The notes beneath the pieces were generated by a model. That model searched no databases and was not told the origin of the DNA. It saw only the letters and a program-made list of their open reading frames with translations. A stretch of DNA of 64,000 nucleotides from an uncultured Candidatus Saccharibacteria bacterium (GTDB taxonomy: Bacteria > Patescibacteriota > JABMPQ01 > JAQVVF01), in the NCBI GenBank assembly GCA_964574655.1, contig CAZNOH010000001.1:471020-535019 (forward strand), read 5' to 3'. This document shows, piece after piece, positions 3,158-63,502 of this stretch (position 1 is the first letter of the stretch; the number at the start of each line of letters is the position of its first letter). The translations under genes and the position numbers were made by a program.

Positions 3158-3197
3158 AGGTTTAATGTGGTTATTTGTTTAAAAACGTAAATTATAA

Positions 3198-3292: not shown

Positions 3293-3297
3293 GTATT

Positions 3298-6197: not shown

Positions 6198-7274
<1,077 letters not shown>

Positions 7275-7282
7275 TTTAGAAA

Positions 7283-7642
7283 TTGAAAATTTTAATATTA
7301 AATATTAAAATGAAAATTGTTTATTTTAAAGGTTATGAATCTAGCTGGTTTAAATATTCTTTTGATGAGCAAATGGGCAATATTGGTAGCGAGGTTTCTC
7401 GTATGAGCTCTGCTTTTAAAATAAAAGATAAGAAAAGAGCGTCGGATTGTTACAAATATGCTTCAGAGTTAATTTATTTAACCTCGATTGATCCGAGACG
7501 GAAAAATAAAACAAAAGAAATCAAGAGAGTTCGTGAAGATTTATTGGTTGCTTTTAATGATTATGATAAAAATAAGTGTTTGCTTGATAATCTAAACAAA
7601 TATCTTTATAACTTTGCTTATCGTTGTCGTGCTAATAGATAA
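7283..7642 (+). CDS. hypothetical protein wedged between gmd and the reductase gene
   Basis: 119-aa ORF with 8-9 nt gaps to both neighbours. No recognisable motif. The true start may be the internal MKIVYFKG. Confidence 0.4.
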   Translation: MKILILNIKMKIVYFKGYESSWFKYSFDEQMGNIGSEVSRMSSAFKIKDKKRASDCYKYASELIYLTSIDPRRKNKTKEIKRVREDLLVAFNDYDKNKCLLDNLNKYLYNFAYRCRANR

Positions 7643-7651
7643 ATTTATATA

Positions 7652-8569: not shown

Positions 8570-8623
8570 TTTGACGCTGATCACTAAAACTGATTTAATG
8601 CTAATTTTTGTTAACATAAAATT

Positions 8624-12049: not shown

Positions 12050-12051
12050 GA

Positions 12052-13149
12052 ATGAAACATGATAATTTAAAAATTTATTTTTTTCCTGATGGTCAAGAAG
12101 CTTACGATCCTTCAAGCAGATATCGCTGTTTTAATATTTATCGAGAATTTGTTAAAAATAATGTTGATTGTGTTTTAGTCGAATCGCCTTTTGGTTTTAG
12201 TTTCGATTTTTATAGTTTTTTCAGAAAATTGTTTACAATTTTTAGAATTACTCTGAAACGACATTTTTGTTTGGTCAAGACAGTGTTAAATCTTGATAAG
12301 AAAAAGAATAATTATCTTTTTCTTCAGCGTGGTTTGAATGTTGGCACTGTTAGTTTAGTTTTATTTTCGAGATTTTTTTATAAATTTAAAGTTATCTTTG
12401 ATTTAGATGATGCAATTTTTTATCTCGATTTTTTAAAAGGCAGAGTAGACAAAATGTTAAAATTTTGTGACATTGTAGTTGTTGGTAGTCATTATTTGCA
12501 AGAATATGCAATAAAATTGAATAAAAATGTTTATCTAATTCCTACATCTTTAGATCTGGCTGGCAGATATTCTAAACAAAAACTTTTTGATGATTTTGAT
12601 GATAAACTTGTTAAAATTGGCTGGATTGGCAGTTATTATAATTTAAAATATCTTAATGTTTTAGTTGAATCATTAAATAATTTAGCTAAAAAGTATTCTT
12701 TAGAAATTATTATAATCGGTCCTAAGCAAAAACCAAAATTAGAATTTTCTAATTTAATTAAGATAAACTATATTATTTGGAATGATAAAACTGAAATTGA
12801 TGATTTATTGAAGATCGATATTGGCGTAATGCCATTATTTGATTCTAATGTTGAACGTGGCAAATGCGCATTTAAAGCAATACAATACATGGCTTTAGGA
12901 ATCCCAACCGTAGCAAGTTCTGTTGGAGAGAATAATTATCTAATTCAAGATGGACAAAATGGTTTTTTGGCATCAAATTCAAAGGAATGGGAAGAAAAAA
13001 TTGAAAAATTGATTTTAGATGCGAACTTAAGAAATAAGTTCTCTATTGAAGCAAAAAAAAGAATAATTGATAATTATTCTTTAGATAAAAATGCTTTGAA
13101 ATTATTGGAAATAATTGAAAATAATTTATCTTTTAAAAGGGTTTCTTAA
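12052..13149 (+). CDS. glycosyltransferase group 1 (GT4-like)
   Basis: AIQYMALGIPTVASSVGENNYLIQDGQNGFL C-terminal GT-B motif. Confidence 0.75.
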   Translation: MKHDNLKIYFFPDGQEAYDPSSRYRCFNIYREFVKNNVDCVLVESPFGFSFDFYSFFRKLFTIFRITLKRHFCLVKTVLNLDKKKNNYLFLQRGLNVGTVSLVLFSRFFYKFKVIFDLDDAIFYLDFLKGRVDKMLKFCDIVVVGSHYLQEYAIKLNKNVYLIPTSLDLAGRYSKQKLFDDFDDKLVKIGWIGSYYNLKYLNVLVESLNNLAKKYSLEIIIIGPKQKPKLEFSNLIKINYIIWNDKTEIDDLLKIDIGVMPLFDSNVERGKCAFKAIQYMALGIPTVASSVGENNYLIQDGQNGFLASNSKEWEEKIEKLILDANLRNKFSIEAKKRIIDNYSLDKNALKLLEIIENNLSFKRVS

Positions 13150-14127
13150 AGCTTTTGGACTTGTTCTCAATTGATATGGCAACAGTCTATGCGGACTGTT
13201 TTTTAATAGTTCTTGATCAGAAATTTTCCGATTTTTGAATAATGATTGCTGTTTTTTGTAGTTTTTAAAAGCCTTAATCATTCCATATAAACCAGCTGGT
13301 GCGGAAAAATCTAAGACTAGCAAATCTAGAGGAAGAATCAACAATTTGTAAAATAGATATTTTGTAATTGATTTTGGCAATGTTTTTTTATCTAGATTCT
13401 TTAATAAAGTTTTTAGATAGTCCTTTTCAAAGATATATCTACGTCTATATAGTTCTTTGAAAGATATTTTTTTAGAATCTTTGGCAATTTTATAATGGTA
13501 GACTATAGATTTTGGTACATAGAAATTTTTATAACCACAGAGTCTAATTCGCCAGGATAAATCAACATCATCACAAAAGAACTTGTATTTTTCATCAAAT
13601 TGTCCAGCTTCATAAAATGCTTTTTTTGAAACTAGCCAAGAAGTAATACCAAAATGTACTTCTCGTGATTCATTATTATCATCTAAACAATTTGCAAATT
13701 GCGGAGAAAAAAAACCGTTTCTGTCTATTATTCCGCCTCTCACAAATGAAGATTTGGTGCCTGTATCAATAATCTGACTAGTGCAAAGTCCTGCATTTTG
13801 CTGTGAAGTAATTGTCGAGACTAATTCTAGAAGCCAATTTTTATCAACTTTTGTATCGTTATCCAAAAAAAGAAAATATTCACCTTGAGCATATTTTGCA
13901 CCCTTGTTAAGAGCTTTTGAATAACCGAGATTGGAATCGCAAACAACAAGCTTAACTTTTGAAAAATTTTTTGTTATAAATTCTACACTGTCATCTGTAG
14001 AATTATTATCTATTAAAATTACCTCAAAGTTCTGATAAACATTTTTGTATATCGATGGCAAGCATTTTTCTAAAAATTTTTCGCCATTAAAATTCGGAAT
14101 TAAAATTGATACTTTAGGATATTGCAT
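13126..14127 (-). CDS. glycosyltransferase family 2
   Basis: VSILIPNFNGEKFLEKCLPSIYKNVYQNFEVILIDNNSTDDS. The DxD region follows. Confidence 0.8.
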   Translation of the reverse strand: MQYPKVSILIPNFNGEKFLEKCLPSIYKNVYQNFEVILIDNNSTDDSVEFITKNFSKVKLVVCDSNLGYSKALNKGAKYAQGEYFLFLDNDTKVDKNWLLELVSTITSQQNAGLCTSQIIDTGTKSSFVRGGIIDRNGFFSPQFANCLDDNNESREVHFGITSWLVSKKAFYEAGQFDEKYKFFCDDVDLSWRIRLCGYKNFYVPKSIVYHYKIAKDSKKISFKELYRRRYIFEKDYLKTLLKNLDKKTLPKSITKYLFYKLLILPLDLLVLDFSAPAGLYGMIKAFKNYKKQQSLFKNRKISDQELLKNSPHRLLPYQLRTSPKALRNPFKR

Positions 14128-16857: not shown

Positions 16858-17963
16858 AATTGACGATATAGAGCTACTACTTTTTGTGTAATCTTTTTTA
16901 TACTAAATTGTTGTGCTGTTTTTATTGTATTAGTTATTAATTCTTCTTTATATTTTTTATTGCTTAAAATCTTTATAATACTTTCAGCTAAGAGTTGTGA
17001 ATTTCTTGGCTCGATAACAATACCTGAATTATTATCTTTAATTTCTTTTGCCATACCAGCAATTTTAGTGGTAATTACTGGCGTGCCACATGCCAAGGCT
17101 TCAACCAAAACAATGCCGAAACCTTCTTGTTCTTTATCAATTGATGGCAAAATAAATATTTCTGATTTATTGTAATATTCCACAAGCTTGTTATCTGGAA
17201 TAAATCCAAGAAATTCAACATTCTTTTCAATGCTTAATTGTTTTACTTTGTTTTTATAATAATCCAAAAGCTTGCCTCTACCACCAATATTTAGTTTTAT
17301 ATCTGGAATTTTGTTTTTGACAATTTTTATTGCATCTAGTAAATAATCTAAACCTTTATATTTGTGATATTCATCAAGAATACTGAGAAAAAATAAAGAA
17401 TTCTTTTGTTTAGGAATATTTATTTTCTTAAATCTATTAGTATCTATGCCAACAGGAATGTAAACAACTTTAGAGGCATATCTTTTTAGATGTGGCGATG
17501 TTTTGAGGTAATCTGGACCAATAATGATGATTCTATCTGCTAGGCTTAAAGTAATTCTTAAAAAAGTTGCATTATATATTTTGGAAATAGTATTACCTAT
17601 CCCCTGCCCAATTATATCATTACAATAAGAAACAACTACTTTTTTTCTTCGTAATTTACCAATAACCGCTGACCAGTCGGCGCTCCACGGAGTTGGTAGA
17701 TAAGTATGGACTAAATCATATTTTTCTTTTAGTAATCTGAATGGCAATGATAAGGTAATATTTGTGTTAGCAATTTTTAAAAATGATCTTAGTCTTTTTA
17801 TTTTTATGCCTTTATATTCTTTAATGTCTGATTTCGGCTCATCAGCACAAATAACTTCAACTTTGTTGCCTTGTCTTGCTAATTCTTGAGAAAGATCAAG
17901 AGCGTATTTCTCAACTCCACCTGTTGCTGGATAAAATCTAATTGGAGTTTGAAGCATTTTCAT
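16854..17963 (-). CDS. glycosyltransferase family 4
   Basis: EGFGIVLVEALACGTPVITTKIAGM motif. Confidence 0.8.
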   Translation of the reverse strand: MKMLQTPIRFYPATGGVEKYALDLSQELARQGNKVEVICADEPKSDIKEYKGIKIKRLRSFLKIANTNITLSLPFRLLKEKYDLVHTYLPTPWSADWSAVIGKLRRKKVVVSYCNDIIGQGIGNTISKIYNATFLRITLSLADRIIIIGPDYLKTSPHLKRYASKVVYIPVGIDTNRFKKINIPKQKNSLFFLSILDEYHKYKGLDYLLDAIKIVKNKIPDIKLNIGGRGKLLDYYKNKVKQLSIEKNVEFLGFIPDNKLVEYYNKSEIFILPSIDKEQEGFGIVLVEALACGTPVITTKIAGMAKEIKDNNSGIVIEPRNSQLLAESIIKILSNKKYKEELITNTIKTAQQFSIKKITQKVVALYRQL

Positions 17964-20954: not shown

Positions 20955-23900
20955 TTATTTAACATTTAATTTAAAGTTATCAAAGGATAAATCGATATTA
21001 TCATCATTACCATCTTCAAGAGATATCTCGATGCTTTGTATATAAACATTATTGGAATCTCTTTGTTGAAAGATTAGATTATTATTTTGCCAAAATTCTA
21101 CTTTGTCTTTGTCTTTATTTATTTTTAGTTCATTCCATTGATTTAGATTAAATTTAGATGGATATCTGCTTTGATTATTTTGAGAATCTCTAAATACGAT
21201 CATTGATTTCGGATTAGTAATAGTAATTTTGTTTACAATATTATTATTGCTGTCGATCAGGCTTATGTTTAACTTTGGTCCATTTTGCCATTTAGATGTT
21301 TTGGTCATTATCGTAAAATCTACTTCATTGAAACAACCGTAAATGTCCTTGGAAATTTTTCCTTGTTGTGATAAAAATTTTAAGGATTGTTTTCCGTAAA
21401 AAGAATCTTCTTGATTGAATAATAATTCCCATGGACGATTAATTAATTTGTCTCTAGAATAATTTTCATCCTCAAAGCTATCAAAGAATTCTTTACTAAA
21501 ATTATATTTTTCAAAAATTTGTCTAAAATTGTCTGAACAATAATCTCGATTTTCAAAATCAGTTTTATTAATTGGCAAATCATTACGTTCAACTTTAAAA
21601 TTTGAGAGTCGGATACCATTATTATTATTGATAATAATTTCATTATTATTATCATCGTAAATTTTAAGGAGTATCTCGTTTTCTTGTGGTTTTAAATTGG
21701 GTAAATCAATAGTAATATTTTGTTCTTGGCCAACTTTCATAATTGGAATGTCAATCTCTTTAAGCTCTGCTTCATCTAACCAATCTTCATTTAAAAACAA
21801 TTTAATTGTCCTTGATCTATTGTCAAAATTCTCGACTTTAAAAGATAAAATAGCATTGACATTGCTTTCTTCTTGATTGTTAATTGTTATTCTTGCATTA
21901 TTATAAGCAACATTAAAGAAACGATCAGTTTGTTTTTCCCATTCATTTATCCCCCAATTTCCTGTGAAGCCTAATAGTAGCTGTTTACTAACTTCTTTAG
22001 GCTTAATTTGTAGAACAACAATTTGATTATCATTAAAAGGAACATTTTCTACGTCAAAATTATTAATAATGAATTTAGTTAGATTAGAAAAATCCTTTAC
22101 ATTTAGCCAATCTTTGTTAATTGCTAAGTACCTTATATTATATCTATTTAATGTATCTTGTCCAGATGAATAATAATAATCTTTATCAAATATATTAAGC
22201 GTTTGCCTTAAATCAAGATTATTAAAAAATAATTTATCCAAAACTGGAATGTTAGTTATTTGAGCATTTTCTTCATCTATCAAGTCTTTTATAAAAATAA
22301 ATTGGGAATTATCTTTTAGACTGTCAATTTCAGCTGGCAACATCAGAATTTTAGAATCTGAGTCTAAACTGTTGTAAAAATTAGGAAGAAAATTATCATC
22401 GTAGATTTTTTTATATTTTATGGCATAAAATAAAACTGATTCTGTTTTATTGCCCTCAGCAATATTAATATTCTGTCCTTCAAAATCTTTGACCTTAAAT
22501 GAGATGGTTGATTGACCAGGTCGAATATTTTTTAAATCGATAAGATATGCTTTAGGCTGATTGACAATAGTTAAATCAGTGATTTTTGTATTATTTAAGT
22601 AAATCTCAAGTTTTCTTGGTTCGTTATTTGCTTTTGCATTAAGATAAAGCTCAATATTTTTATTATCATTAGATGGATTATCTAAAACTAAAGTTGAATT
22701 ATTAAGCATCCAATGCTCTTGCAAAATCTGTTTCCTTTTTTCATTGATTAAGATACTTTGATCAAAATCATCCTGTCCCCAATTCTGTCCTTGATAAATC
22801 GTAACTTGATCGTTTTTTTGTCCGGTAATTTCATATACCAGTTCATCCCCTATTGTTTGCCAATTGCCTTGAGTATTTTCTTTGAGAAACTTGATCGTTT
22901 TCTGAAAACTAAATAAATTTTTAAAATTTTTCTCTTCCCAATTATTTTCACTGACTTGAAATTTTTGCGGTATTGTTTTTTGAATAAATTGGCTGTCAAA
23001 AACAATATATTTTATTTTTTCATTAGCTAAATAATCAGTAAAAGTTTTTGTGTAATCTGGTTGAATAAAATTGGCATAATTTATTTCTCTGCCTTGTGGC
23101 AAATTATCAATAAACGCAGAAACCGGAGTTTTTTTGTTAGATTGATTTAAATTATCAAAGAATAATTTTTGATTAGAAATAATTTTTGATTTATTTTCAT
23201 AATTTTGGTAAAGAAAATTTCCTGGTTCCTGCAATGGGACATTCAGGTAGGCTATGTTTTCATCTGATTTAAGATTGGCGTAAAATGAAGACGTTGTTGG
23301 TCCTGGTTGCCAGATTAACCATGAGCTGAACAGAATTAAAAGAAAGAATGCGCCCAAAATTAAAGTTTTTATTTTTGGGGAATAATTAATTTTTTCTAGA
23401 AAGAATTTGAAGCCAAAGGAAATGAAAATTATGAAGAATAATAAACTGAAGATTAAGAAACTTTTTGGGTCGATTGTCTGATTGAAATATGGAAAGAAAC
23501 GATATAGAAAAAGATAAGGTAAGCTAATTTTTGGCGAAATTATGTTTTGTTGGAAGATTAAATATGGACCAAAAGAAAAGATGATAAATATTATTGATAA
23601 AATAAACGAAAAAATGATATATTTGTTTTTTTGATATGACCTAAATGCAAAGACAATAAAAATTAATAACAGAAATATAAAAATAACGCTTAGGCAAATT
23701 ACTGGCGAAAACTTGAACAAAGCTGATTGGGTAAAGTCTAGAAGCTTAGAAAGGTCTAGAGAATTGCTGATAAATAGTTGACCGTCTAAGTCAAAAGACT
23801 GAATTTGCCTTAACGGCCAATAACATTTTAGGCTAAAAACGATGATTAACAGCAAAATAAAGCTTATTAATTTGGTCAATTCTTTAGATTGATGGATGAA

Positions 23901-24500
23901 ATCTTTAAATTTTGGATAAAGAACAAAAATTATTACTATAAATGATAATAATAAAGCCGCAATGCTAAAGAATAAATTGTAACTGCAGATAAATAAGTAG
24001 AATAAACATGCCAGCAGGCCGAATTTAATACTTGATTTTTCTAAAGACTTTAGCAAGAAATAAATAAAAAATAAAACTAAAATTAACGGATAACAAACAA
24101 TTGACGCCAAGCCGAATAAAATTCCGCCGAAAATTGCGCTAAGCTTACTTTCTTGATGCATCAGATAGTCAATCAGCAAATAACCGCCAAAAGCGCCAAA
24201 TGGAAAAAAGAGAATTAAAAATAAATTGAAGCCCAATGGTTCGGAAAAGATTAGATGAAATAAATAACCAATTGCTGAGGGACTTAAAATATCGTAAACA
24301 GCAGTAATTATAGTTTGGCTGTTTAAATTTTGAAATACTTTAATGACTTCAAAGTATTTGGCGTTGAAAGAAAAAACATCTAGATTTAGCGCTAAATTTT
24401 GGTTAATTAAAAATATGGCCGGCAAAATGATAATTATGCCTAAGCTAAAATATAGAATAAAAATTGATAATTTTAGATGTTTTTTAACAAAATTAATCAT
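20955..24500 (-). CDS. giant integral membrane protein (about 1180 aa): N-terminal polytopic GT-C-like domain plus an about 800-aa extracytoplasmic N/Q/K/D-rich domain
   Basis: The ORF-track start at 24560 adds an unlikely MAFWANLYFICANIKIKKKP. The internal MINFVKKHLKLS at 24500 is the more plausible start. About 12 TM segments in the first 420 aa, then a long soluble region. Confidence 0.6.
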   Translation of the reverse strand: MINFVKKHLKLSIFILYFSLGIIIILPAIFLINQNLALNLDVFSFNAKYFEVIKVFQNLNSQTIITAVYDILSPSAIGYLFHLIFSEPLGFNLFLILFFPFGAFGGYLLIDYLMHQESKLSAIFGGILFGLASIVCYPLILVLFFIYFLLKSLEKSSIKFGLLACLFYLFICSYNLFFSIAALLLSFIVIIFVLYPKFKDFIHQSKELTKLISFILLLIIVFSLKCYWPLRQIQSFDLDGQLFISNSLDLSKLLDFTQSALFKFSPVICLSVIFIFLLLIFIVFAFRSYQKNKYIIFSFILSIIFIIFSFGPYLIFQQNIISPKISLPYLFLYRFFPYFNQTIDPKSFLIFSLLFFIIFISFGFKFFLEKINYSPKIKTLILGAFFLLILFSSWLIWQPGPTTSSFYANLKSDENIAYLNVPLQEPGNFLYQNYENKSKIISNQKLFFDNLNQSNKKTPVSAFIDNLPQGREINYANFIQPDYTKTFTDYLANEKIKYIVFDSQFIQKTIPQKFQVSENNWEEKNFKNLFSFQKTIKFLKENTQGNWQTIGDELVYEITGQKNDQVTIYQGQNWGQDDFDQSILINEKRKQILQEHWMLNNSTLVLDNPSNDNKNIELYLNAKANNEPRKLEIYLNNTKITDLTIVNQPKAYLIDLKNIRPGQSTISFKVKDFEGQNINIAEGNKTESVLFYAIKYKKIYDDNFLPNFYNSLDSDSKILMLPAEIDSLKDNSQFIFIKDLIDEENAQITNIPVLDKLFFNNLDLRQTLNIFDKDYYYSSGQDTLNRYNIRYLAINKDWLNVKDFSNLTKFIINNFDVENVPFNDNQIVVLQIKPKEVSKQLLLGFTGNWGINEWEKQTDRFFNVAYNNARITINNQEESNVNAILSFKVENFDNRSRTIKLFLNEDWLDEAELKEIDIPIMKVGQEQNITIDLPNLKPQENEILLKIYDDNNNEIIINNNNGIRLSNFKVERNDLPINKTDFENRDYCSDNFRQIFEKYNFSKEFFDSFEDENYSRDKLINRPWELLFNQEDSFYGKQSLKFLSQQGKISKDIYGCFNEVDFTIMTKTSKWQNGPKLNISLIDSNNNIVNKITITNPKSMIVFRDSQNNQSRYPSKFNLNQWNELKINKDKDKVEFWQNNNLIFQQRDSNNVYIQSIEISLEDGNDDNIDLSFDNFKLNVK

Positions 24501-54949: not shown

Positions 54950-56335
54950 ATGAAAGACAATGCCAGAAAGTTTTCTTTGGCAATTTTTGTGGCGATTTTG
55001 GTTTGTTTTTTGATGCCTTTTTTGGATTTGTCGTGCGGAGAACAAAAAATTGTCAACTTAACTGGATTGGAACTTATTACTGGAAAAACAATTGCAGATT
55101 CAAGTATTTACGGCGTGGAAAATAATCATACTCATCCGCATCTGTTGGTTATTTTAGCTTCTTTATGCTCAATTGCAGGTTTTGTTTTTGTTTATGTGAA
55201 GGGCAAATCAAGGCTTATTTCTTCGGCATTAAGCTTGCTGGGATTTGTTTTTTTACTGAAGTTTAAAATTCTGATGGATGGCAATATTGCTGAAAAAGGC
55301 GATGGCATGATTTTTGCTGACTGGCGATATGGTTTTTGGTTGGCATGCGTTCTATTTATCTTGGCATCTGTTATTTGCTTGGTTGCTTATTATCGGGAAA
55401 AAAGTAAGACAGTTGTTTCTGGCACGATGATTAGTTGTTTTGCTGTTTTTTTTGTTGCTTTGATAGGATATAACTGCAATTCGAATAAAACACCATCTTT
55501 TAGAGAATTAGCGAAATCTGACGCTTCTTGGGATTTACATCCTATTTGGCATCCACAGAAAAACATTGTTATTTTTGAACGCTGGGATGAGAATATTGGC
55601 TGGAATACTTACCAATTGAACATGAATGATTTTGCTATTGCCAGATTTAAGCCTGCAAGCAACTTTGATGATTATAATAGCATTGATTGGTTTTCTGATG
55701 GCAATAGTTTTGTCTTTTGGACTGGCGGAAATGTGAATGCGCCTCCTAAAATTTGGCGTTATGATTCGAATAATCAGGTTTCTGAATTAGCTGACAATGC
55801 TGCTCATCCGTGCTGGATTAATAATTATAAAAGCATTATTTATATGGACACGCAACGCGGTGATTCGATTTGGCTGATGGATGGCAATGGCAATAATAAA
55901 CGCCTTCTAATTAAACCAGGTTCCGCTCCTGATTGCATGGCAGACGGCGAATGGTTTGTTTATAATTCAAGACCGTCAAGAGATGATTTTAGAGGAAATA
56001 TTTATGCTTTTAACATTGCCAGCCAACAGATGATTTCTATCACAAATAGTGATAATGCCAAAAGTGCCAGTTTTTCTTTTGATGGTAAAAAAGTAGTCTA
56101 TGTTAGAATTGTTCTTCCAGAAAAATATGATAGAGATAAAGAAGTAATAATTGAGAGCAGTAAATACCAAATAGTTGTTGTTGATTTTCCAAGCCTAGAA
56201 AATGAAAGAGTCATTTTTGAGAGTTTGGGTATTGTTGAGTGCACTCCAACGATATCTCCTAATAGTAAGCACTTGGCATGGTGCCATAGCGAAGGGGGGC
56301 GTAAATTTAGTCACATACGATTTCTTGAACTTTGA
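54950..56335 (+). CDS. membrane-anchored TolB-like beta-propeller protein
   Basis: Four N-terminal TM helices (about 180 aa), then a WD40/PD40-like repeat pattern (SIDWFSDGNSFVFW, SIIYMDTQRGDSIWLMDGNG, NIYAFNIASQQ, FSFDGKKVVYV). Confidence 0.6.
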   Translation: MKDNARKFSLAIFVAILVCFLMPFLDLSCGEQKIVNLTGLELITGKTIADSSIYGVENNHTHPHLLVILASLCSIAGFVFVYVKGKSRLISSALSLLGFVFLLKFKILMDGNIAEKGDGMIFADWRYGFWLACVLFILASVICLVAYYREKSKTVVSGTMISCFAVFFVALIGYNCNSNKTPSFRELAKSDASWDLHPIWHPQKNIVIFERWDENIGWNTYQLNMNDFAIARFKPASNFDDYNSIDWFSDGNSFVFWTGGNVNAPPKIWRYDSNNQVSELADNAAHPCWINNYKSIIYMDTQRGDSIWLMDGNGNNKRLLIKPGSAPDCMADGEWFVYNSRPSRDDFRGNIYAFNIASQQMISITNSDNAKSASFSFDGKKVVYVRIVLPEKYDRDKEVIIESSKYQIVVVDFPSLENERVIFESLGIVECTPTISPNSKHLAWCHSEGGRKFSHIRFLEL

Positions 56336-56428: not shown

Positions 56429-56920
56429 ATGAAAACAAAAAAAGAAATTACAATTAATGATTTGGCCAAGTTACTTGAAAAGCTTGGCGAAAAAGTTGAA
56501 AAGTTATCTGTGAAAATGGATACAGGTTTTAAGAAAAATGACGTGCGATTTTTTAGTTTAGAGAGAAAGATGGAGACTGGTTTTAAAAACCAAGAAAAAA
56601 AGTTAGAAGAAAAATTCGACAAAAAAATTTCAGAGCTTGCGTTGATGGTTGCAAAAGGTTTTAAAGAAACTGCATCTAAAGAAGAAGCTGCTACAAAAAT
56701 AGATATAGAAAATTTAAATTTAAAGATTGATAATGTTGAAGAATCTTTGATAAATAAAATTGATTCTGCAAAAGGTGATGTAATTCTGATTATTAGAAAA
56801 TTAGATGAAAAGATAATTGTTTTAGTTGATTTTCTTAAGGGTCATCAAATTTTAAACGATGTTGAATACGAAAAGCTATGCAAAATAAAGGCTTTTCAAA
56901 CTATTGAGCTTAAGTCTTAA
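56429..56920 (+). CDS. K/E-rich coiled-coil protein (hypothetical)
   Basis: 163 aa, heptad-like LEKLGEKVEKLSVKMD..., with no TM or signal peptide. Confidence 0.5.
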   Translation: MKTKKEITINDLAKLLEKLGEKVEKLSVKMDTGFKKNDVRFFSLERKMETGFKNQEKKLEEKFDKKISELALMVAKGFKETASKEEAATKIDIENLNLKIDNVEESLINKIDSAKGDVILIIRKLDEKIIVLVDFLKGHQILNDVEYEKLCKIKAFQTIELKS

Positions 56921-56945: not shown

Positions 56946-57704
56946 ATGAGACAAAAAAGATTTTTGGTGTTGTCGCTTGTTTTAGGAAGCGCGTTGTTGA
57001 TAACAACAGCTTTTGCAAGTGCAACATCCGTATGGACAACTGATTCTATGCTAGTAAAGAAAGTAGCAACAGTTGGAACAAATAGCAATAAAGGACAATT
57101 GCTAGTAAAAGGTTTTATCAGAAATCCTGTCAAAGGCAAAAAAGTTTATGTAAAAGATCATTTGAAAGTTCAAGGCAATGTTCAAGTTGGCGGAATTTTG
57201 CAAGGAAACAATATTGTAAGTGCTGACAATCTTGGAACTGGTGTTGTAACTGAAACAAAATTGGGAACTGGCGCGGTAACTGCTGATAAATTAGGAACAG
57301 GCGCTGTAACAACTGATAAATTAGGAACAGGCGCGGTATCTTCTGCAAAAATTGCTGATGACGCTGTAAATGCTGATAAATTAGATTTTTCGATTGATGG
57401 CGTGGTAAAGGCGGCGGCGTATGGAACACAAGCAACTTGCAATAGTACTGCTTTGGCAAGATCTTTTAATAAGTTGGCTTCTAGTAGCGCAACTTGTTCA
57501 CGTACAAGTACTGGTATTTATACTGTAAATTTTAACACGACTATAAGTAGTAGATTTTTTCAGGTTACGCCGTTACACACTTCAGATATTTATCCGGTCA
57601 TTAACTCTTTACCTTCTAGCACAATAGAAATTTATTTTTATGATGCTGCTGGGGCTACTGCCGACTTAACTGATCCAACTGGATTTTATATAACTGTTTA
57701 TTAA
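56946..57704 (+). CDS. secreted surface protein, paralog of 18015..18548, with an inserted KLGTGAVTxD repeat array
   Basis: MRQKRFLVLSLVLGSALLITTAFASATSVWTTDSMLVKKVATVGTNSNKGQLLVKGFIRNPVKGKKV aligns to the 18015 gene. Four tandem (K/N)LGTG(A/V)VT(A/T/E)(D/T) units. Shared C-terminal GFYITVY. Confidence 0.7.
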   Translation: MRQKRFLVLSLVLGSALLITTAFASATSVWTTDSMLVKKVATVGTNSNKGQLLVKGFIRNPVKGKKVYVKDHLKVQGNVQVGGILQGNNIVSADNLGTGVVTETKLGTGAVTADKLGTGAVTTDKLGTGAVSSAKIADDAVNADKLDFSIDGVVKAAAYGTQATCNSTALARSFNKLASSSATCSRTSTGIYTVNFNTTISSRFFQVTPLHTSDIYPVINSLPSSTIEIYFYDAAGATADLTDPTGFYITVY

Positions 57705-57836: not shown

Positions 57837-60686
57837 CTAGCGTCTCATGATTTCAAAGTAGTGCTGGATTTCAGCGTCGGAAAGTGCCTTGTTGAAGAAG
57901 GAAAATTCGTCGATGGTCATATCGCTTTTTTGACCACCAACGTTCTGTGCACCTAAAAGCATTGCATTTCCAATAATATTTACATACGGGCCATTCCAAA
58001 TGGGCACGCCATCATTATAGACTGTGAAATTTCCGTTTTGATATTTTGCGGCAAACGCGTACAGTTGATTAGCGTTAACGTTTACCATTTGTGCAAATCG
58101 TTCCTGTGACAAATAAAATGTCCACTTAAATCCGTCATCTGTCGAAAGTATCCCGAGTCCAGGCATTCTGTTACGTGAGAAAATCATGTCTCCTGTTTCA
58201 TACGTTCGTACTTTAACAGACACGAAGTATGTGAACTCATTCGCAATGCTGTCCATACTCACACTATCAGCCACCTCGGCGTAGTCGTCAACTCCGTCGA
58301 ACGATGCAGCCTGGCCACAAACTGCATCCGCAGTGAAAGTGGCGCCGTGGTTGACAGCATTGTTGGCATTTGGCGAACCATCATTGAAGTGGTTGTCAAA
58401 CGACAGGTACATGACCAACGACCGGCAGTCTTCATCAACAGCGCCATCGCAGTCATTGTCAACCTGATCGCAGATTTCCACTCCGCAGTTGGTAACCGTA
58501 CATTCACAGCCATCAGTAGGATTAGCATTCACATCGAAGCGGAAGCGGTTGCACTGCAACACGCACTGTCCTGCTACACAACGCGAGCTAGAAGTCCCCT
58601 GATTTCCGCAAACGCGATTGCATTGGCCACAGTTCAATGGATCAACCAAGAGGTCGAAGCCATTGTCTGCAGTACCATCACAATCGTTGTCCAGGCCATC
58701 ACAGATTTCAGCAACTGATGTGATCTGATTCTGGCATTCTCCCCACTCACGGCTCTCCCAGCAGATCTGCGTTCCGATCTGGCATTCGCCGACATCGGTA
58801 CCGCAGTTGCGAGAAACACCTGGTGAGCAACAGCCAATCAGATTTTCGTCAGTTTCAGAATTGCAATTGTTATCCAGACCATCGCAGATTTCATCAGACG
58901 GTCCAGTTGCACCTTCGCACCAGCCCCAAGAGCGGTTGGCCTGGCAAGTGGAAGTTCCCTTCTCACATTCGCCAGTGTCAATTCCGCAATAGGAAAGATC
59001 ACGAGGTTCGCAACAACCTTCCAAATCTTCATCAGTCGAATCGTCGCAATCGTTGTCCAAGCCATCGCAGATTTCATCTGTCGACGGATTGGCAATTGCG
59101 TTGCAACTACTGGTCTGGTCATTAACACATGCAATCACGCCTTCGGCATAACATTCGCCAACGCCGTTAGAGCAAAAATTGCGAGTGTTAAAACCTTCAT
59201 CAGTGTTGTGATCGCAATTGTTATCAAGGCTATCGCAGATTTCGTTGCTCGACTGAACCTCGCCTTCACAGGCAAGCCAGACGCCAGCGAAACAAGACTG
59301 CACGCCCTTCTGACACTCACCGACATCATTGCCACATTCCTGCGTCAATGCTTCGTCGGTTGCGCCATCGCAATCATTGTCCTTGTTGTCGCAAAGCTCG
59401 TCGTGAGACAGGCCAGCAACAGCATTGCAGAACGTTGACTGCTGATCAATGCCACATACCAACTGACCAAGCGACAAGCACGCGCCTACGCCGATCTGGC
59501 ACTCTGCGCCAAGATTGACATAAGCTTCATCAGTGTTGCCGTCGCAGTTGTTATCTTTGGCATCGCATAGTTCAGCCGTGGGCTTCACTTCGTCAGTGCA
59601 TTCACTCCACACACCATCTTGCGAGCAAGTCTTGCGACCCTTTTGGCATTCGCCAACATTGGAGCCACATACGACCTGATCATTTGCATTGCAACATCCA
59701 ACCAAATCCTCATCAGTTGCGCCATCGCAGTCATTGTCCTGCTGGTCGCAAGCTTCTTCGGTTGGCTGAATGGTCTGTGCATTGCAAGTTGCTGAAAGCT
59801 TGTCATCACTGCAAACATAAACACCGCGCGAAATACAGAGACCTTGACCGATCTGGCAGGCACTTTCAAGGTTTACGAAATCCTCGTCAGTGTTACCGTC
59901 ACAGTCATTGTCCAACAAGTCGCAAAGATCTGCAGATGGGTCAACAGCATTTTCACACTGGCCCCAACTACCGTCTTCTTGACAAGTCATTTGACCCTTC
60001 TGGCATTCCCCGACATCATTGCCACATTCCTGAACATCGTTTTGATCGCAACAGCCAACCAATTCTTCATCGATTGTGCCATCGCAATCGTTATCCAGTT
60101 CATCACACTCTTCAGGAATTGCCTGACCAGCGACTGCATTGCAAGTCGTAGTGTTGCCGTCAGCGCTACAAACGTAGACGCCTTCTGCAAAACATTCGCC
60201 CTTGCCAACATTGCAGACCTGATTTAGGTTGTCGAAACCTTCATCAGTCTGATTGTCGCAGTCGTTGTCCTTGCCATCGCAGATTTCAGTGGACGGAATA
60301 CAAGGAATGTCAGCACCTGTATCAGGAGTCGTGTCTGGCTCACTGTCAGGCGAAACATCTTTGCCACCACCTGAGTCTACATCTGGAGTTCCAACTTCAG
60401 CATCAGCTTCGGGGCCAACTTCAGCGTCTGCTTCAGCATCAGGCCCTGCATCAAAGCAATTGGTGCATACGGCCTTGCAAACTGTGTCCTTGTCGGCGTG
60501 AAGCATTTCATCGTTGAGTTCGTTGCTTTCAACACAGATCTTTTTCTCATTCAAGCAAACACAAGTGAACTTTTCAGTACAAAGCGCATTTTCATCACAG
60601 AGATTCTTTTTGTCCATGTCGTCAAAACTCTGCAAACATCCAGAAATTGCCAACGCAAAAAACATAGCCAGCGTTCTCGTTGTCAT
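57837..60686 (-). CDS. lipoprotein with about 12 MopE-like 'CDGxDNDCDGxTDE' Cys-rich repeats and a C-terminal LamG/concanavalin-A-like domain
   Basis: Lipobox ALAISGC. Alternating repeat types (…DNDCDGxTDEgF.NL…C..G.G.C…G..VC and …DNDCDGxxDE.L.GCC…CG..VGECQKG..TC). C-terminal FDGVDDYAEV…KWTFY…NGNFTVYNDG matches the Laminin_G_3 pattern. GC about 50-53% against about 28% for the glycan locus. SD GAGGAGGAAGGAAAATG. Confidence 0.85.
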   Translation of the reverse strand: MTTRTLAMFFALAISGCLQSFDDMDKKNLCDENALCTEKFTCVCLNEKKICVESNELNDEMLHADKDTVCKAVCTNCFDAGPDAEADAEVGPEADAEVGTPDVDSGGGKDVSPDSEPDTTPDTGADIPCIPSTEICDGKDNDCDNQTDEGFDNLNQVCNVGKGECFAEGVYVCSADGNTTTCNAVAGQAIPEECDELDNDCDGTIDEELVGCCDQNDVQECGNDVGECQKGQMTCQEDGSWGQCENAVDPSADLCDLLDNDCDGNTDEDFVNLESACQIGQGLCISRGVYVCSDDKLSATCNAQTIQPTEEACDQQDNDCDGATDEDLVGCCNANDQVVCGSNVGECQKGRKTCSQDGVWSECTDEVKPTAELCDAKDNNCDGNTDEAYVNLGAECQIGVGACLSLGQLVCGIDQQSTFCNAVAGLSHDELCDNKDNDCDGATDEALTQECGNDVGECQKGVQSCFAGVWLACEGEVQSSNEICDSLDNNCDHNTDEGFNTRNFCSNGVGECYAEGVIACVNDQTSSCNAIANPSTDEICDGLDNDCDDSTDEDLEGCCEPRDLSYCGIDTGECEKGTSTCQANRSWGWCEGATGPSDEICDGLDNNCNSETDENLIGCCSPGVSRNCGTDVGECQIGTQICWESREWGECQNQITSVAEICDGLDNDCDGTADNGFDLLVDPLNCGQCNRVCGNQGTSSSRCVAGQCVLQCNRFRFDVNANPTDGCECTVTNCGVEICDQVDNDCDGAVDEDCRSLVMYLSFDNHFNDGSPNANNAVNHGATFTADAVCGQAASFDGVDDYAEVADSVSMDSIANEFTYFVSVKVRTYETGDMIFSRNRMPGLGILSTDDGFKWTFYLSQERFAQMVNVNANQLYAFAAKYQNGNFTVYNDGVPIWNGPYVNIIGNAMLLGAQNVGGQKSDMTIDEFSFFNKALSDAEIQHYFEIMRR

Positions 60687-60795
60687 TTTCCTTCCTCCTC
60701 TTGATGTAAGGTTCGGTCTGTTCAGCCGAATCCTTGGGTTTTCAGTTCAAATTATAGTAGCATATACATAAAATTTTGGCAAGAGAAAATTGTTT

Positions 60796-60824
60796 ATTAT
60801 GGCTTTTTTGACTATTTTTGTCAA
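60796..60824 (-). promoter_or_regulatory. candidate promoter (minus strand -35 TTGACA, 17-nt spacer, -10 CATAAT)
   Basis: Minus-strand reading ttgacaaaaatagtcaaaaaagccataat. Confidence 0.45.
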
Positions 60825-60862: not shown

Positions 60863-62146
60863 TTAAAAAAGTTCGTTCCATTCACAGAAAAAAGGACGAG
60901 TCAAGCCGCAGAAAGCATCATTCCAACCGCCATTTGGTGGCAAGTCAATGCGAATTTCTACGCAATCTTCACCGCTTGCGCCAATAGCTTGAGAGTTATT
61001 TGGTTCTCCAGAAGCCCATTCAAGGACATCTGAAATTTCGCCAGATTCCCAGACCCAGGTATTTTCTTGCGCAATATCGTTTAAACCGATCCAGGCGGAA
61101 AAATAGCCTAATTGCAAGGTGTAAAAATATCCGTCTTCAAGCAAATCATTTATTGTAGCAAGATGACTGTTAAATCTTCGGCAATATTGAACTGCTTCAA
61201 TCCAAACAAGCTCTTGGTTGCAATAAGCATAAGTATGATTTTGATATTCCATAATTTGGCAATTCATATCTAAGCATTGGCCTTCTAGACAGATGCCTTG
61301 AGGCTGGCAGGGATTATTTTCATCTGTCTCCCCATCGCAATCATTATCTAGTCCATCGCAAATTTCATCAGTTTTCAGCCATAATTTTTCTTCTGCATCA
61401 CAATTTGAAAGCAAATCACCATCGCAAGCAATCTGGCCTAGAGCTCTACAAACTCCATTTCCAATTTCACAATATTCGCCAATTAGAAAACCGTCATCAA
61501 TTTCTTCATCGCAGTCATTATCTAAGCCATCACAAATATCATGTTCTGGATTCTTGCTATTACATTCTGACCATGTGCCAAAGGCTAAACATGTTTGTCT
61601 GCCAAGTCTGCATTCACCAATATTGCTGTTTCCGCAAATTCTCGTCTCGGTTACTATGCAACAATCTTCAAGATTTTCATCAGTCTCGCCATCACAATCG
61701 TTGTCTAGGCTATCACAGACTTCATCTGTTTTTAGCCAAGACCTTTCTTCAGCATTACAAAACGAATATTCATGAGTCTCACAGAAAAAATGGCCAGTTC
61801 CCGTACAAACTCCTTTTCCATTTTCACAATGTTCGCCTACTTTGAAATTTTCATCAATCTCGCCATCACAATCGTTGTCTTGATTATCACAAATTTCTTT
61901 GACACATTCTATGTTGTTTTCTGTATCTGGTTCATCAGTTTTTTCATCGTTATCGTCCTGATTTCTTGAATCTTCTCGGATTAATACCTCTGGTTGAATT
62001 AATTTTTCACAAATTCCAGAAATACAATAATAGCCATCAACGCAGTCAAAAATTTCAGAGCATTGATTTTTTGCTTCTAATCCTGTTGAATCAAAACTGC
62101 ATCCGCATGCCAAAATCGCTAGACAAAGACATGTTGCTCGTTGCAT
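60863..62146 (-). CDS. lipoprotein with 4 MopE-like Cys-rich repeats and a C-terminal canonical C-type lectin carbohydrate-recognition domain
   Basis: Signal peptide MQRATCLCLAILACGCS. Repeats CDNQDNDCDGEIDE, CDSLDNDCDGETDE, CDGLDNDCDEEIDD, CDGLDNDCDGETDE. CTLD hallmarks YCRRFNSHLATI, WIGLND, WVWESGE, WASGEPNN, EDCVEI, GGWNDAFC, FFCE. Confidence 0.85.
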   Translation of the reverse strand: MQRATCLCLAILACGCSFDSTGLEAKNQCSEIFDCVDGYYCISGICEKLIQPEVLIREDSRNQDDNDEKTDEPDTENNIECVKEICDNQDNDCDGEIDENFKVGEHCENGKGVCTGTGHFFCETHEYSFCNAEERSWLKTDEVCDSLDNDCDGETDENLEDCCIVTETRICGNSNIGECRLGRQTCLAFGTWSECNSKNPEHDICDGLDNDCDEEIDDGFLIGEYCEIGNGVCRALGQIACDGDLLSNCDAEEKLWLKTDEICDGLDNDCDGETDENNPCQPQGICLEGQCLDMNCQIMEYQNHTYAYCNQELVWIEAVQYCRRFNSHLATINDLLEDGYFYTLQLGYFSAWIGLNDIAQENTWVWESGEISDVLEWASGEPNNSQAIGASGEDCVEIRIDLPPNGGWNDAFCGLTRPFFCEWNELF

Positions 62147-62227: not shown

Positions 62228-62253
62228 TAAAAAAAACGCCATAAATAGCGTTT
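62228..62253 (-). terminator. weak Rho-independent terminator overlapping the stop of the 62252 gene
   Basis: Minus-strand aaacgc-tatttatg-gcgttt followed by tttttt. The stem is only 6 bp. Confidence 0.4.
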
Positions 62254-63346
62254 AGAAATAAAGGTTCAATGATACGCCGCTTGGATTCGGAATAATAATC
62301 GCCTGTGGCGATTTGGGATTCTTGTGAATGATTTCGAAATGATCAAGCAAGAAAAGCGTTGCGCCAGTTGCCAAAGCGCCTCCGCCATAAATAAACATGG
62401 TGTTGGCCATGGCAGCTGAAGATTGTGATTCATCTCTGAAAGAAACAGCCTGACGCTGAATATTGGTTCCCTCATAATTGGCTCTGGAAGTATTGGCAGA
62501 AACGCCGAAATACCCACCAGTTCCAACCATTCCAGCTCCAAGACTCATCAATGCAATACCGCTCCATGCATGCCAGTCAAGGCCTTTTTTGATCTTGGGC
62601 TCTGCTGTCTTAACAACTTCAGCAACAGGCTTCAGCTCTTCTGGCCTTACCTCTTCCCCCACTTCTTCCTCGACTGGTGCAGGAGGCGGTGGGATAACTT
62701 CCAATTCTTGTGGCTGAAGACCGAGAAAGGCTTCATCAGCACGCAGACTGGGCATTCGTTCTGCCCAAATCATCGGCGTTTTCCGCAAAATTGCGACTGT
62801 TGCATCTGCAATTTCGGGCACTGTCTTGTCATAAACCTCTTCTGACGCACAAGACTTGCATACCCAAGTCATTTCAATCCTATTGTTGATGGCATCAAAA
62901 AGCGTCAGATCTATGGAAAGCCTTGCCTTGGGCTTGGTCGTTTTCGCACCCTTGACCTTCTTCTTGCCCTTAGCCTTCTGTACTGCTAGCTTACCTTTTT
63001 CCTTGACGATCGTGCCATATAGCATTCTTCCCATTTGCTTGGTAACACAAACGTTTCGGACACATCCTTCAGTGGCAAAACACTGACGGATTTCCTCATT
63101 GTTCTTGATACCAAAGATTTCTTGTCCAGCAAAATTCAATCCAAGGTTTGCCCCTGCAAATTTTGCGATCAAAAGTTCGATAACGGAATCTGAGAGATTC
63201 GGCTCCTGACTTTTGTTGCCCGGAATGACAACAATCGCAAAATCAGGATGTTCAATCTTTTTTTCTCCATCGATAGGTTCTTGAGCGTACGCAATTCTAG
63301 AAAACAAAGTAATCAAAATCAACATTGTAATGTGCGCGGTTCTCAT
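62252..63346 (-). CDS. secreted protein with Lys-rich and Pro/Glu-rich linkers and a Gly-rich hydrophobic C-terminal region ending LNLYF (hypothetical)
   Basis: SD GGAGGGAAGG sits directly before the second Met (MRTAHITMLILITLFSRIAYAQ), so the start is placed at 63346 rather than 63358. GC about 47%. Confidence 0.6.
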   Translation of the reverse strand: MRTAHITMLILITLFSRIAYAQEPIDGEKKIEHPDFAIVVIPGNKSQEPNLSDSVIELLIAKFAGANLGLNFAGQEIFGIKNNEEIRQCFATEGCVRNVCVTKQMGRMLYGTIVKEKGKLAVQKAKGKKKVKGAKTTKPKARLSIDLTLFDAINNRIEMTWVCKSCASEEVYDKTVPEIADATVAILRKTPMIWAERMPSLRADEAFLGLQPQELEVIPPPPAPVEEEVGEEVRPEELKPVAEVVKTAEPKIKKGLDWHAWSGIALMSLGAGMVGTGGYFGVSANTSRANYEGTNIQRQAVSFRDESQSSAAMANTMFIYGGGALATGATLFLLDHFEIIHKNPKSPQAIIIPNPSGVSLNLYF

Positions 63347-63502
63347 CCTTCCCTCCATTGTCCGCCAAAGCTAAGCTACGGCGGGCTGTCTTCTGTGTCG
63401 GAGCACTGTTTTGGCTTCATATTAGTGTAACAAAAGATTATCCACTTGTCAAGTTTCACTATTTGATATTTTTCCTGTATAATATAATATGTATTTTAAT
63501 AT

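Follow-up and report, generated by a model that had tools for sequence, protein, structure and literature searches.

The window analysed here, a stretch of 64,000 nucleotides from an uncultured Candidatus Saccharibacteria bacterium, carries a gene at positions 57837-60686 of the minus strand (all positions are those of the window) whose product, of 949 amino acids, combines MopE-type repeats with a LamG domain. The evidence leans, to a moderate degree, towards a membrane-anchored surface lipoprotein of Patescibacteria (the Candidate Phyla Radiation, CPR), in which a Ca2+-stiffened stalk and a swappable lectin head form an adhesin or ligand-recognition fibre, and which has used GC-rich codons for a long time. 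The gene is a recombination mosaic, and its head cassette is exchanged between strains. Its compositional anomaly, which mimics the signature of gene transfer, is ancient, confined to the gene and common to the lineage. Both of these properties go beyond the existing annotation, the protein being a member of a family already annotated as "MopE-related protein".

The coding sequence is a real open reading frame (ORF) with an ATG start. The N-terminus of its product, MTTRTLAMFFALAISG followed by Cys, fits a lipobox (by pattern, ...FFALAISG followed by C17), in agreement with the 949-residue lipoprotein proposed in an earlier, sequence-only reading of this DNA. The assignment was made by pattern, a signal peptide ending in [LVI][ASTVI][GAS]C being taken to indicate a lipoprotein. 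The lipobox Cys after the hydrophobic region is kept in the orthologues and in the distant family members P0100, P0116 and P0118. A search with the hidden Markov models (HMMs) of Pfam matches PF11617 (Cu-binding_MopE) in 11 stretches, with an E-value of 1.7e-39 and 134.2 bits, far above the cut-off of 27. It also matches PF13385 (Laminin_G_3) at residues 797-941, with an E-value of 2.8e-11 and 44.2 bits (cut-off 27.6). The MopE-type repeats and the LamG/ConA-like C-terminus named in the sequence-only reading were both recovered.

The motif was located by a regular expression at residues 136, 194, 255, 313, 374, 432, 484, 540, 601, 662 and 739, which makes 11 copies rather than the 12 counted earlier. 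The modules between residues 130 and 661 each open with C-D-x-x-D-N-[DN]-C-[DN]-G-x-T-D-E and are of two alternating types, A and B, as the earlier description of an A-B super-repeat had it. The A modules are 56-58 residues long and consist of the motif plus four Cys (6 Cys in all). The B modules (52-61 residues, 6-8 Cys) combine the motif with a CC...CG..GEC..G..C segment. The single C module has 77 residues and an NCGxC...GCEC segment, and D is a short motif set against the LamG domain. The overall order is A-B-A-B-A-B'-A-B-B-C-D. The protein as a whole has 87 Cys (9.2%), 12.1% Asp, 8.4% Asn and 6 His (0.6%). The features of the gene, from its 5' to its 3' side, are:

60796..60824, minus strand: promoter-like TTGACA-17-CATAAT, 11/12 matches, 5' of the gene (from a consensus scan only, which is not evidence of function)
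60694..60700, minus strand: Shine-Dalgarno-like GAGGAGG, 7 nucleotides 5' of the ATG (read from the sequence)
57837..60686, minus strand: complete gene of the MopE-type-repeat/LamG lipoprotein (ORF list; Pfam PF11617 and PF13385)
60636..60686, minus strand: signal peptide with lipobox, residues 1-17 (...LAISG followed by C17; sequence pattern)
60300..60635, minus strand: small Cys-rich N-terminal segment and acidic linker rich in D, E, P and T, residues 18-129 (translation)
60391-60434, minus strand: PEADAEVG-type short tandem repeat within the acidic linker (direct-repeat search)
58704..60299, minus strand: nine MopE-type modules A-B-A-B-A-B'-A-B-B, residues 130-661 (motif positions, module lengths, alignment)
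58473..58703, minus strand: module C, residues 662-738, a MopE motif and then the Cys-rich NCGxCxxxC...GCEC segment
58425..58472, minus strand: module D, residues 739-754, the last MopE motif, abutting the LamG domain directly
57840..58424, minus strand: LamG_3/ConA-like jelly-roll head, residues 755-949 (Pfam, predicted structure, Foldseek)
58254..58553, minus strand: conserved "anchor" block, residues 712-811 (end of module C, module D and first LamG strands)
57840..58253, minus strand: hypervariable C-terminal LamG cassette, residues 812-949 (codon alignment, BLAST)
57837-57839, minus strand: stop codon
57803..57822, minus strand: terminator-like hairpin and T run, 3' of the stop (consensus scan)

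The head has a jelly-roll fold. It was modelled with AlphaFold 2 (AF2) from an alignment of 37 sequences, with a mean predicted local distance difference test (pLDDT) of 94.0 and a predicted template-modelling score (pTM) of 0.89. The best Foldseek match in the PDB is domain 4 of the GH43 arabinanase AbnA (5hon_A; E=3.5e-12, template-modelling (TM) score 0.77), followed by the lectin-like domain of the Trypanosoma cruzi trans-sialidase and the binding (Hc) fragment of a clostridial neurotoxin. Both the HMM score and the fold place the head among LamG_3/ConA-like domains. A HMMER search of 1.84 billion cluster representatives yields 3,157 LamG_3 relatives at E<=1e-3 and only 7 at <=1e-30, and a word-index homologue search with the LamG domain alone finds two proteins only. 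Several of the best LamG matches, as well as P0100, P0116 and P0118, are proteins of 498-957 residues that combine MopE repeats with LamG.

The identical protein (P0001, 100%) is encoded on a 654-kb NCBI contig. Orthologues with 65-69% identity occur in the Patescibacteria metagenome-assembled genomes (MAGs) GCA_041662665.1 (L001, where the annotation is "MopE-related protein") and GCA_028699085.1 (L089), in a JGI metagenome (L002, L003) and in Logan assemblies (L004-L006, L090). P0004 is listed as "MAG: MopE-related protein [Patescibacteria group bacterium]". More distant is P0123 (824 residues, 50% identity), which lies in the same neighbourhood in the ENA assembly L172. Six lineages were compared: the window, L001, L002, L004, L090 (the same as L089) and the deep lineage L172. 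Their conserved gene order runs epimerase, MetK, Ugd, two hypothetical genes, the homologue of a 368-residue protein, a C-type-lectin paralogue, MopE-LamG, the homologue of a 252-residue protein and a small coiled-coil protein; the paralogue occurs in this synteny only in the window and in L172. Host-like genes flank the locus on both sides. The same arrangement is found in independent NCBI, JGI, ENA and Logan assemblies, and an assembly chimera or contamination as the source of the jump in GC content was rejected on that ground.

The mosaic is seen in a five-way codon alignment of the orthologues, in which the proportions of differing synonymous (pS) and non-synonymous (pN) sites were determined block by block. 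Between L002 and L090, pS is 0.00 in the N-terminal 170 columns and 0.10 in the module region, where the differences are clustered in alignment columns 261-455 (window residues ~222-416). In the block that takes in the last part of module C and reaches the first LamG strands it is 0.16. Over the last ~140 LamG residues pS rises to 0.76 and pN to 0.47, with only 22-40% amino-acid and 38-53% nucleotide identity left. The divergence starts within the conserved block, near window residues ~751-803. This anchor block is 84-100% identical in amino acids among the orthologues and contains the recombination junction. When the window is compared with L002 and L090, pS in the anchor block is 0.26-0.30 (about 0.6 elsewhere) at a nucleotide identity of 91-92%. 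In L004, pS in the block is 0.72-0.76 despite the conserved protein; the similarity of the window to L002 and L090 in this block is therefore due to recent exchange and not to constraint at the nucleotide level. L002 and L004 form a mosaic as well, their nucleotide identity being 97-100% over columns 100-175 and 63-89% in most other parts of the gene. There are at least four types of head cassette (window, L001, L002/L004 and L090), which share about 22-47% amino-acid identity in sliding-window and BLAST comparisons.

The stalk is under purifying selection, with a ratio of non-synonymous to synonymous divergence (dN/dS) of about 0.2. A constrained stalk with an exchanged head would fit a recognition surface under diversifying pressure, for example one that attaches to host cells or glycans, and the swap of the LamG head between otherwise near-identical strains is the pattern expected of a specificity determinant. 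Scans of genome and metagenome contigs gave no further orthologues among the matches listed, which were swamped by generic Myxococcota CDGxDNDC patterns. A diversity-generating retroelement (DGR) was considered as a source of the variable heads and rejected, there being no template repeat in the window and the divergence of the alleles being far beyond the DGR type. A blastn search of the window at word size 7 with the LamG cassette and the C-type-lectin region of the paralogue found no second copy of either; not every ORF was screened for a reverse transcriptase.

The modules themselves are diverged repeats. Compared in pairs, they are 23-59% identical as protein and about 46-66% as DNA, and the repeat families returned by a repeat search are 60-80% identical and centred on the MopE motif. 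Tandem Repeats Finder detects no array within the gene, and the lone short tandem DNA repeat is that of the acidic linker (60391-60434). The repeat units had been called near-identical in DNA, a description that these values do not bear out. The number (11), order and lengths of the modules are the same in all five close orthologues, and the alignment of these shows 85/87 Cys and all 11 motif cores to be conserved. The idea that the gene is prone to expansion or contraction is thereby refuted for the present gene. The sole part that varies in length among close orthologues is the acidic linker, of 131, 136 or 163 codons. With 9 modules, the deep lineage L172 is one A-B pair short. The number of modules thus shifts over long time scales, without sign of current instability.

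Two shorter variants in public databases, of 488 residues in L089 and 790 residues in L001, were considered as contractions of the repeat array and found to be gene-calling artefacts. The true ORF of L001 (L001:9416-12373) encodes 985 residues, the public call of 790 residues beginning at an internal TTG. The locus L089:11291-14239 is split in the annotation into a 488-residue gene and an antisense ORF of 319 residues, while its DNA is 100% identical to that of L090, in which the ORF encodes 954 residues. Gene finders trained on the AT-rich genome are probably led astray by the atypical composition, and two public assemblies have calls for the gene that are truncated or split.

The gene has a GC content of 0.485. 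Its GC content at third codon positions (GC3) is 0.478, compared with 0.241±0.036 (range 0.160-0.305) for 46 other genes of the window (z=6.6). Upon redrawing its own amino-acid sequence with background codons, a GC3 of 0.262±0.013 was obtained (maximum 0.314 in 5,000 draws; z=15.9), showing that amino-acid bias does not explain the excess. GC3 is raised along the whole gene (0.40-0.57 in windows of 100 codons), and the intergenic DNA on either side is host-like (GC 0.27-0.32). The correlation of the tetranucleotide signature with the rest of the window is 0.16, compared with 0.54±0.06 for windows of the same size. The sharp contrast in GC, GC3 and tetranucleotides noted earlier is real, and it survives the control for amino-acid composition.

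The fractions of GAC (0.45 against 0.20 in the background), AAC (0.45 against 0.19), TGC (0.61 against 0.45) and GGC (0.47 against 0.30) are shifted in the direction given in the sequence-only reading, although GAT and AAT are still the majority codons. Further NNC codons rise in the same way, TTC from 0.19 to 0.55 and ATC from 0.16 to 0.48. The codon shift is not a uniform GC shift. AAG reaches 0.71 (background 0.19) and CAG 0.76 (background 0.22), whereas GAG, at 0.20, is close to its background of 0.16 and GAA stays at 80%. Codons ending in A are avoided (A3 0.17 against 0.36), with TTA, ATA and AGA nearly absent.

The same excess is found in the syntenic orthologues of all six lineages, which have GC3 values of 0.42-0.48 on backgrounds of about 0.2. 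The values are 0.44 in L001, 0.48 in L002, 0.46 in L004, 0.475 in L090 and 0.42 in L172, in each case with neighbouring genes at about 0.14-0.30. The close orthologues share the codon signature (AAG 0.55-0.79, CAG 0.70-0.85, GAG 0.20-0.26, TTA at no more than 0.03 of Leu codons). The GC3 of the upstream partner gene (the 368-residue protein) is also raised in every lineage, to 0.35-0.43, and the codon-family-specific signature recurs in its orthologues.

The divergence among these lineages is large. In the MopE-LamG gene, the three deep branches of the close clade differ by a pS of about 0.6, and the Jukes-Cantor-corrected synonymous divergence (dS) of neighbouring genes is 0.7-1.1. The memory of composition was measured as the correlation of state, G/C versus A/T (S/W), at synonymous sites of conserved residues. 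Between L172 and the window clade it amounts to 0.01-0.14 in MetK, Ugd, a 545-residue gene and the downstream gene, and to 0.05-0.12 in the MopE-LamG gene. The fraction of G/C at those sites is 0.41-0.49 in the MopE-LamG gene compared with 0.12-0.31 in the neighbours. Synonymous sites are thus saturated, that is, randomised, between L172 and the window clade.

These results bear directly on the earlier claim of a recent acquisition from a higher-GC donor. A donor such as the Myxococcota, with the GC-rich codons as a fresh foreign signature, would account for a GC3 of 0.478 against 0.24, for the atypical tetranucleotide signature and for the module types, which occur in the greatest numbers in Myxococcota (the identity of module C to proteins of that group reaches 58%). 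GC-richer MopE islands in two other Patescibacteria MAGs, L088 and L033, could be taken in the same sense. The claim is nevertheless refuted, because six syntenic lineages have the same GC3 excess, one of them with saturated synonymous sites, and it can be given very little credence. The flanks are host-like, and a GAA usage of 80% is unlike that of high-GC donors. No tRNA is found in the 64-kb window and no integrase among the neighbouring genes scanned, nor were flanking island repeats seen. A tblastn search for a phage or mobile origin gave no match in 50,697 phage records and none in IMG/VR. Of the marks of a recent genomic island, atypical composition is present; patchy presence among close relatives, a tRNA in the window, flanking repeats and an integrase among the scanned neighbours are not. 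As the locus shows, an AT-rich, reduced genome can contain an anomaly of GC and codon usage that is old and common to a lineage; composition by itself is therefore no evidence of recent transfer.

The two MAGs just named are unrelated ones. In L088 the MopE-related genes at 7844-13282 and 16878-17642 have a GC3 of 0.79-0.83, compared with 0.45-0.48 for host genes. In the Falkowbacteria MAG L033 (1-10780) a MopE gene has a GC3 of 0.54 and lies in a GC-rich block (0.43-0.70, host 0.22-0.29) at the end of a contig, where a chimeric assembly is possible.

A foreign origin in the distant past, from Myxococcota-like donors, is plausible in view of the module types, of the GC-richer blocks in L088 and L033 and of the codons of the Myxococcales MopE gene L009. 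The more specific proposal that such a gene entered the ancestor of the clade from a GC-rich donor and has since ameliorated slowly, incompletely and neutrally, with no force maintaining its composition, is unlikely. It would be in keeping with Myxococcota-type modules and GC-rich MopE islands that may be arranged into a series of stages (GC3 0.83, 0.54, 0.48, 0.33 and, for the paralogue, 0.27). It would also fit the comparison of L002 with L004, where pS is 0.53 in the MopE-LamG gene and 0.32-0.38 in the neighbours, as for a gene that is not at equilibrium.

Its difficulty lies in the amount of memory that has been lost. In a two-state decay model of our own, the memory between L172 and the window clade, derived from the neighbouring genes, has an r² near 0.08, or an r near 0.28. 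Starting from an ancestral GC3 of 0.9, decay would leave about 0.40 rather than the 0.42-0.48 observed, and an ancestor with a GC3 of almost 100% is needed. Within the close clade, where r is 0.4-0.6, the present usage of CAG and AAG would require ancestral values above 100%. Moreover, the usage of CAG and AAG is 3-4 times background but that of GAG close to it, GC3 is equal in all lineages, and the LamG cassettes have a GC3 of 0.34-0.43 although they are mutually saturated. A single old transfer with neutral decay is tenable only marginally. The GC-rich composition is probably held up by a continuing process, for which selection on codons, GC-biased gene conversion at a hot spot of recombination and repeated import from GC-richer relatives are candidates.

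One form of such a process is a tentative possibility, short of an even chance: the GC-rich "island" may be a recombination hot spot and not foreign DNA, the adhesin gene and its upstream partner being repeatedly exchanged among Patescibacteria strains while GC3 is held near 0.45. The swaps of whole-head LamG cassettes, anchored in the conserved block, would belong to that exchange. GC-biased gene conversion or codon selection linked to expression would keep GC3 near 0.45 where the equilibrium of the genome is near 0.2, and would do so for long enough to randomise synonymous sites fully. The anchor block has the highest GC3 of the gene (0.51-0.59) and also the strongest sign of recent exchange, a single observation that is compatible with GC-biased gene conversion. 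If true, the hot spot would be a clear example of an ultra-small symbiont genome in which the composition of one gene has a stable equilibrium of its own, and a caution against taking GC anomalies for horizontal transfer.

The gene product is most likely an adhesin or a fibre that recognises ligands. Host recognition by Patescibacteria, which live attached to other microbes, is little understood. Assuming Sec export and lipidation at Cys17, the protein would be tethered to the outer face of the cytoplasmic membrane. The acidic linker and the 11 modules, if locked by disulfides and stiffened by Ca2+, would form a rigid stalk of a few tens of nanometres, as estimated from the size of the modules. 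On this stalk the LamG head would be displayed at the surface, at some distance from the cell. In the head, the distal two-thirds are hypervariable and are swapped between strains by homologous recombination anchored in the conserved block, which fits a changing specificity for ligands or hosts. The adjacent paralogue has the same stalk and a C-type lectin domain, which points to a modular system for lectin display; this pair of stalk-plus-lectin-head proteins is conserved in L172. The two adjacent lipoproteins, with the same Ca2+-type stalk and with LamG and C-type lectin heads, respectively, make the locus a concrete candidate for host recognition. Many surface proteins with lectin (concanavalin-like) domains are encoded by Patescibacteria and are thought to mediate attachment (PMC12911398).

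The protein might instead capture polysaccharides or nutrients, its head acting as a carbohydrate-binding module, or organise an S-layer or cell wall. The best structural match of the head is indeed the carbohydrate-binding domain 4 of the GH43 arabinanase, a weak sequence match in the PDB is to an S-layer domain protein (4qvs, E=0.04), and the locus lies among genes for polysaccharide biosynthesis and proteases. No catalytic domain is found in the protein or its conserved partners, however, and the swapping of heads between near-identical strains is more typical of recognition or arms-race surfaces than of a housekeeping role in binding substrates. Such a role in place of a host-cell adhesin is therefore rather improbable.

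The loops of the modules probably bind structural Ca2+ and not copper, judging from their motif. The core D-N-[DN]-C-[DN]-G-x-T-D is an exact match to Dx[DN]xDG in 7/11 modules, and in the other 4/11 the last two motif positions vary (DN, DH, DD, NS). There are a dozen or more structural contexts in which the linear motif Dx[DN]xDG binds Ca2+ (PMC3123361). In the structure at 1.5 Å of teneurin-4's C-rich domain, a nearly identical core, DND-G-DG-x-T-D, makes Ca2+ sites, and calcium stabilises the protein (PMC9058538); an alignment of this part of teneurin with the PF11617 consensus had been published before (PMC3278476).

A protein that scavenges copper or binds another transition metal, in the manner of MopE of Methylococcus or CorA of Methylomicrobium, is suggested by the Pfam name ("Cu-binding_MopE, putative metal-binding motif") and by the many acidic loops and cysteines, but is very improbable. 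MopE* and CorA have a beta-sheet domain in which Cu(I) is held by two His and a kynurenine, together with one structural Ca2+ (PMC3912023), as against the 6 His in 949 residues here. Of MopE itself, PF11617 spans no more than a short motif (PMC6189053). No MopE*/CorA chain was found among all PDB chains, either by phmmer with the full protein (E<=1) or by hmmsearch with a profile of the A-B unit (E<=10), and there is no similarity to the crystallised copper domains. The Cys occur in even-numbered invariant sets, as is typical of disulfides. The loop had been described as putatively binding Ca or Cu; the first half of that description fits the motif, and the second is unsupported. Binding of Ca2+ rather than Cu, if shown, would correct a misleading family name.

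Several points weigh against the picture of a Ca2+-stiffened fibre with a long-maintained codon usage. The A-B unit was modelled by AF2 with moderate confidence (pLDDT 70.9). It has no significant sequence or structure match in the PDB, including thrombospondin type-3 (TSP3), low-density lipoprotein receptor class A (LDL-A) and the teneurin C-rich domain, and Ca2+ binding rests on a short linear motif since the model matches no solved structure. LamG_3 domains occur in enzymes and toxins too, and an adhesin is not the sole possible role of the head. As to the codons, one ancient transfer from a donor with a GC3 near 100%, surviving as a neutral relic, would be only marginally excluded by the decay model. 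Polarisation of the changes by parsimony gives about as many S>W as W>S changes (42:35, 29:30 and so on), a weak test, as saturation makes the counts symmetric by construction and control genes gave compressed ratios too. The Myxococcales MopE gene L009 already has high AAG and CAG and low GAG.

Sequence comparison makes the protein a member of the PF11617 repeat family, within a small LamG_3 subfamily of Patescibacteria, and not a MopE/CorA copper protein. The "MopE-related" (PF11617) proteins of Myxococcota and other bacteria have the same repeated C-D-x-x-D-N-D-C-D-G-x-x-D-E motif and the same Cys-rich segments (GxGxC...C in A, CC...CG..GEC..G...C in B and NCGxCG...GCEC in C). About 3,900 matches of this kind show 30-44% identity over the repeat region, module C reaching the 58% given above. 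Typical Myxococcota members have 1,000-1,600 residues, are GC-rich and often end in MYXO-CTERM or other domains. The present protein differs in being a lipoprotein, in its LamG head and in its genome, of about 30% GC and roughly 650 kb. No solved structure or tested function was found for any member of the repeat family in these searches.

The members of the Patescibacteria subfamily (P0002-P0004, P0100, P0116, P0118, P0123, P0125, P0126 and P0129; 498-985 residues) are built in the same sequence: lipobox, acidic linker, A/B/C/D modules and LamG head. Their heads share 40-59% identity, beginning with ...LVMYL(S/P)FD... and ending with ...ALSDxEIxxY. They differ in the number of modules (9 in L172, 11 in the window and fewer in the members of 498-703 residues) and, between alleles, in the head cassette.

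The likeness to other systems is more distant. Methylococcus capsulatus MopE* and Methylomicrobium album CorA are alike only in a short acidic Cys motif and in being extracytoplasmic; there is no alignable region, and membership of that group is not supported. The teneurin C-rich domain, TSP3 and LDL-A repeats share the core DND-x-DG-x-T-D with flanking Cys, and in teneurin, as predicted here, the modules stiffen an extracellular adhesion protein. The spacing of the Cys and the appended A/B sub-domains differ, however, and there is no significant similarity in sequence or predicted structure. The likeness, which is at the level of the motif, suggests how the modules may work and implies no family membership. 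Neither the full protein nor the A-B profile found a MopE*/CorA, teneurin, TSP3 or LDL-A match among PDB sequences, and the A/B module type is without a solved representative findable by these searches. The ConA-like lectin domains (5HON, trans-sialidase, neurotoxin) share the jelly-roll, with TM scores of 0.75-0.78 and 13-20% sequence identity. Unlike in those domains, about 140 of the 195 residues of the head behave as an exchangeable hypervariable cassette.

The neighbourhood of the gene includes genes for secreted and surface proteins and for polysaccharide synthesis. Two of the genes lie directly upstream:

60863..62146, minus strand: adjacent paralogue of 427 residues, MopE modules with a C-type lectin head (Pfam PF11617 and PF00059)
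62252..63358, minus strand: upstream partner gene of 368 residues, GC3 0.434

The paralogue has a lipoprotein-like N-terminus, an acidic linker, A-B-A modules with one more MopE motif, and a C-type lectin domain (PF00059, E=8e-15). Its modules are 43-44% identical to those of the MopE-LamG protein. Its codon usage is host-like (GC3 0.271), although it lies between two GC-rich neighbours. The homologue in L172 is at the same position and has 371 residues and a GC3 of 0.333; the paralogue is absent at this locus in L001, L002, L004 and L090.

The 368-residue protein combines a signal peptide with a linker rich in Pro, Glu and Lys and, in its C-terminal part, two hydrophobic segments; it ends in ...SGVSLNLYF. 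It gave no Pfam or NCBIfam match, and its homologues are confined to the present lineage. They are found directly upstream of the MopE-LamG orthologue in L001, L002, L004, L090 and L172. The gene shares the atypical codons (GC3 0.434, z=5.4; AAG 0.68, CAG 0.58, no TTA). The protein may be a functional partner of MopE-LamG.

Downstream, 56429-56920 (plus strand) encodes a coiled-coil protein of 163 residues and 56946-57704 (plus strand) a secreted protein of 252 residues with LGTGAVTxDKL repeats. Homologues of both adjoin the distant MopE-LamG gene of P0118 in another Patescibacteria MAG (L087:1803-2147 and 6259-7946). The 252-residue protein is 35% identical to a 330-residue L087 protein (E=9e-38), and the 163-residue protein matches three small L087 proteins with E-values of about 1e-11. 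Their recurrence suggests that these genes and MopE-LamG form a conserved gene module for a surface structure.

Farther downstream, 54950-56335 (plus strand) encodes a membrane protein of 461 residues with a weak PD40/beta-propeller-like C-terminal region. A gene in a similar position in L172, a candidate counterpart, has faint PD40 matches. The gene is absent at the corresponding position in L001 and L002. Between 5000 and 47400 most of the scanned ORFs are for polysaccharide or glycan biosynthesis, among them UDP-galactopyranose mutase, GDP-mannose dehydratase, epimerases, flippases, several GT2 glycosyltransferases and a B12/radical S-adenosylmethionine (SAM) enzyme. The same region holds a 1,181-residue ORF (20955-24500) with no Pfam match.

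At 1919-4101 (minus strand), a CysN-like GTPase of 412 residues with EF-Tu-type domains adjoins a PAPS_reduct/CysD-like protein of 267 residues. The two look like a sulfate adenylyltransferase pair in a reduced genome. The EF-Tu-like ORF (1919-3157) had been considered as a highly expressed reference gene and was rejected, as it is CysN-like and lies beside the CysD-like gene. Both genes of the pair use somewhat more NNC codons than their neighbours.

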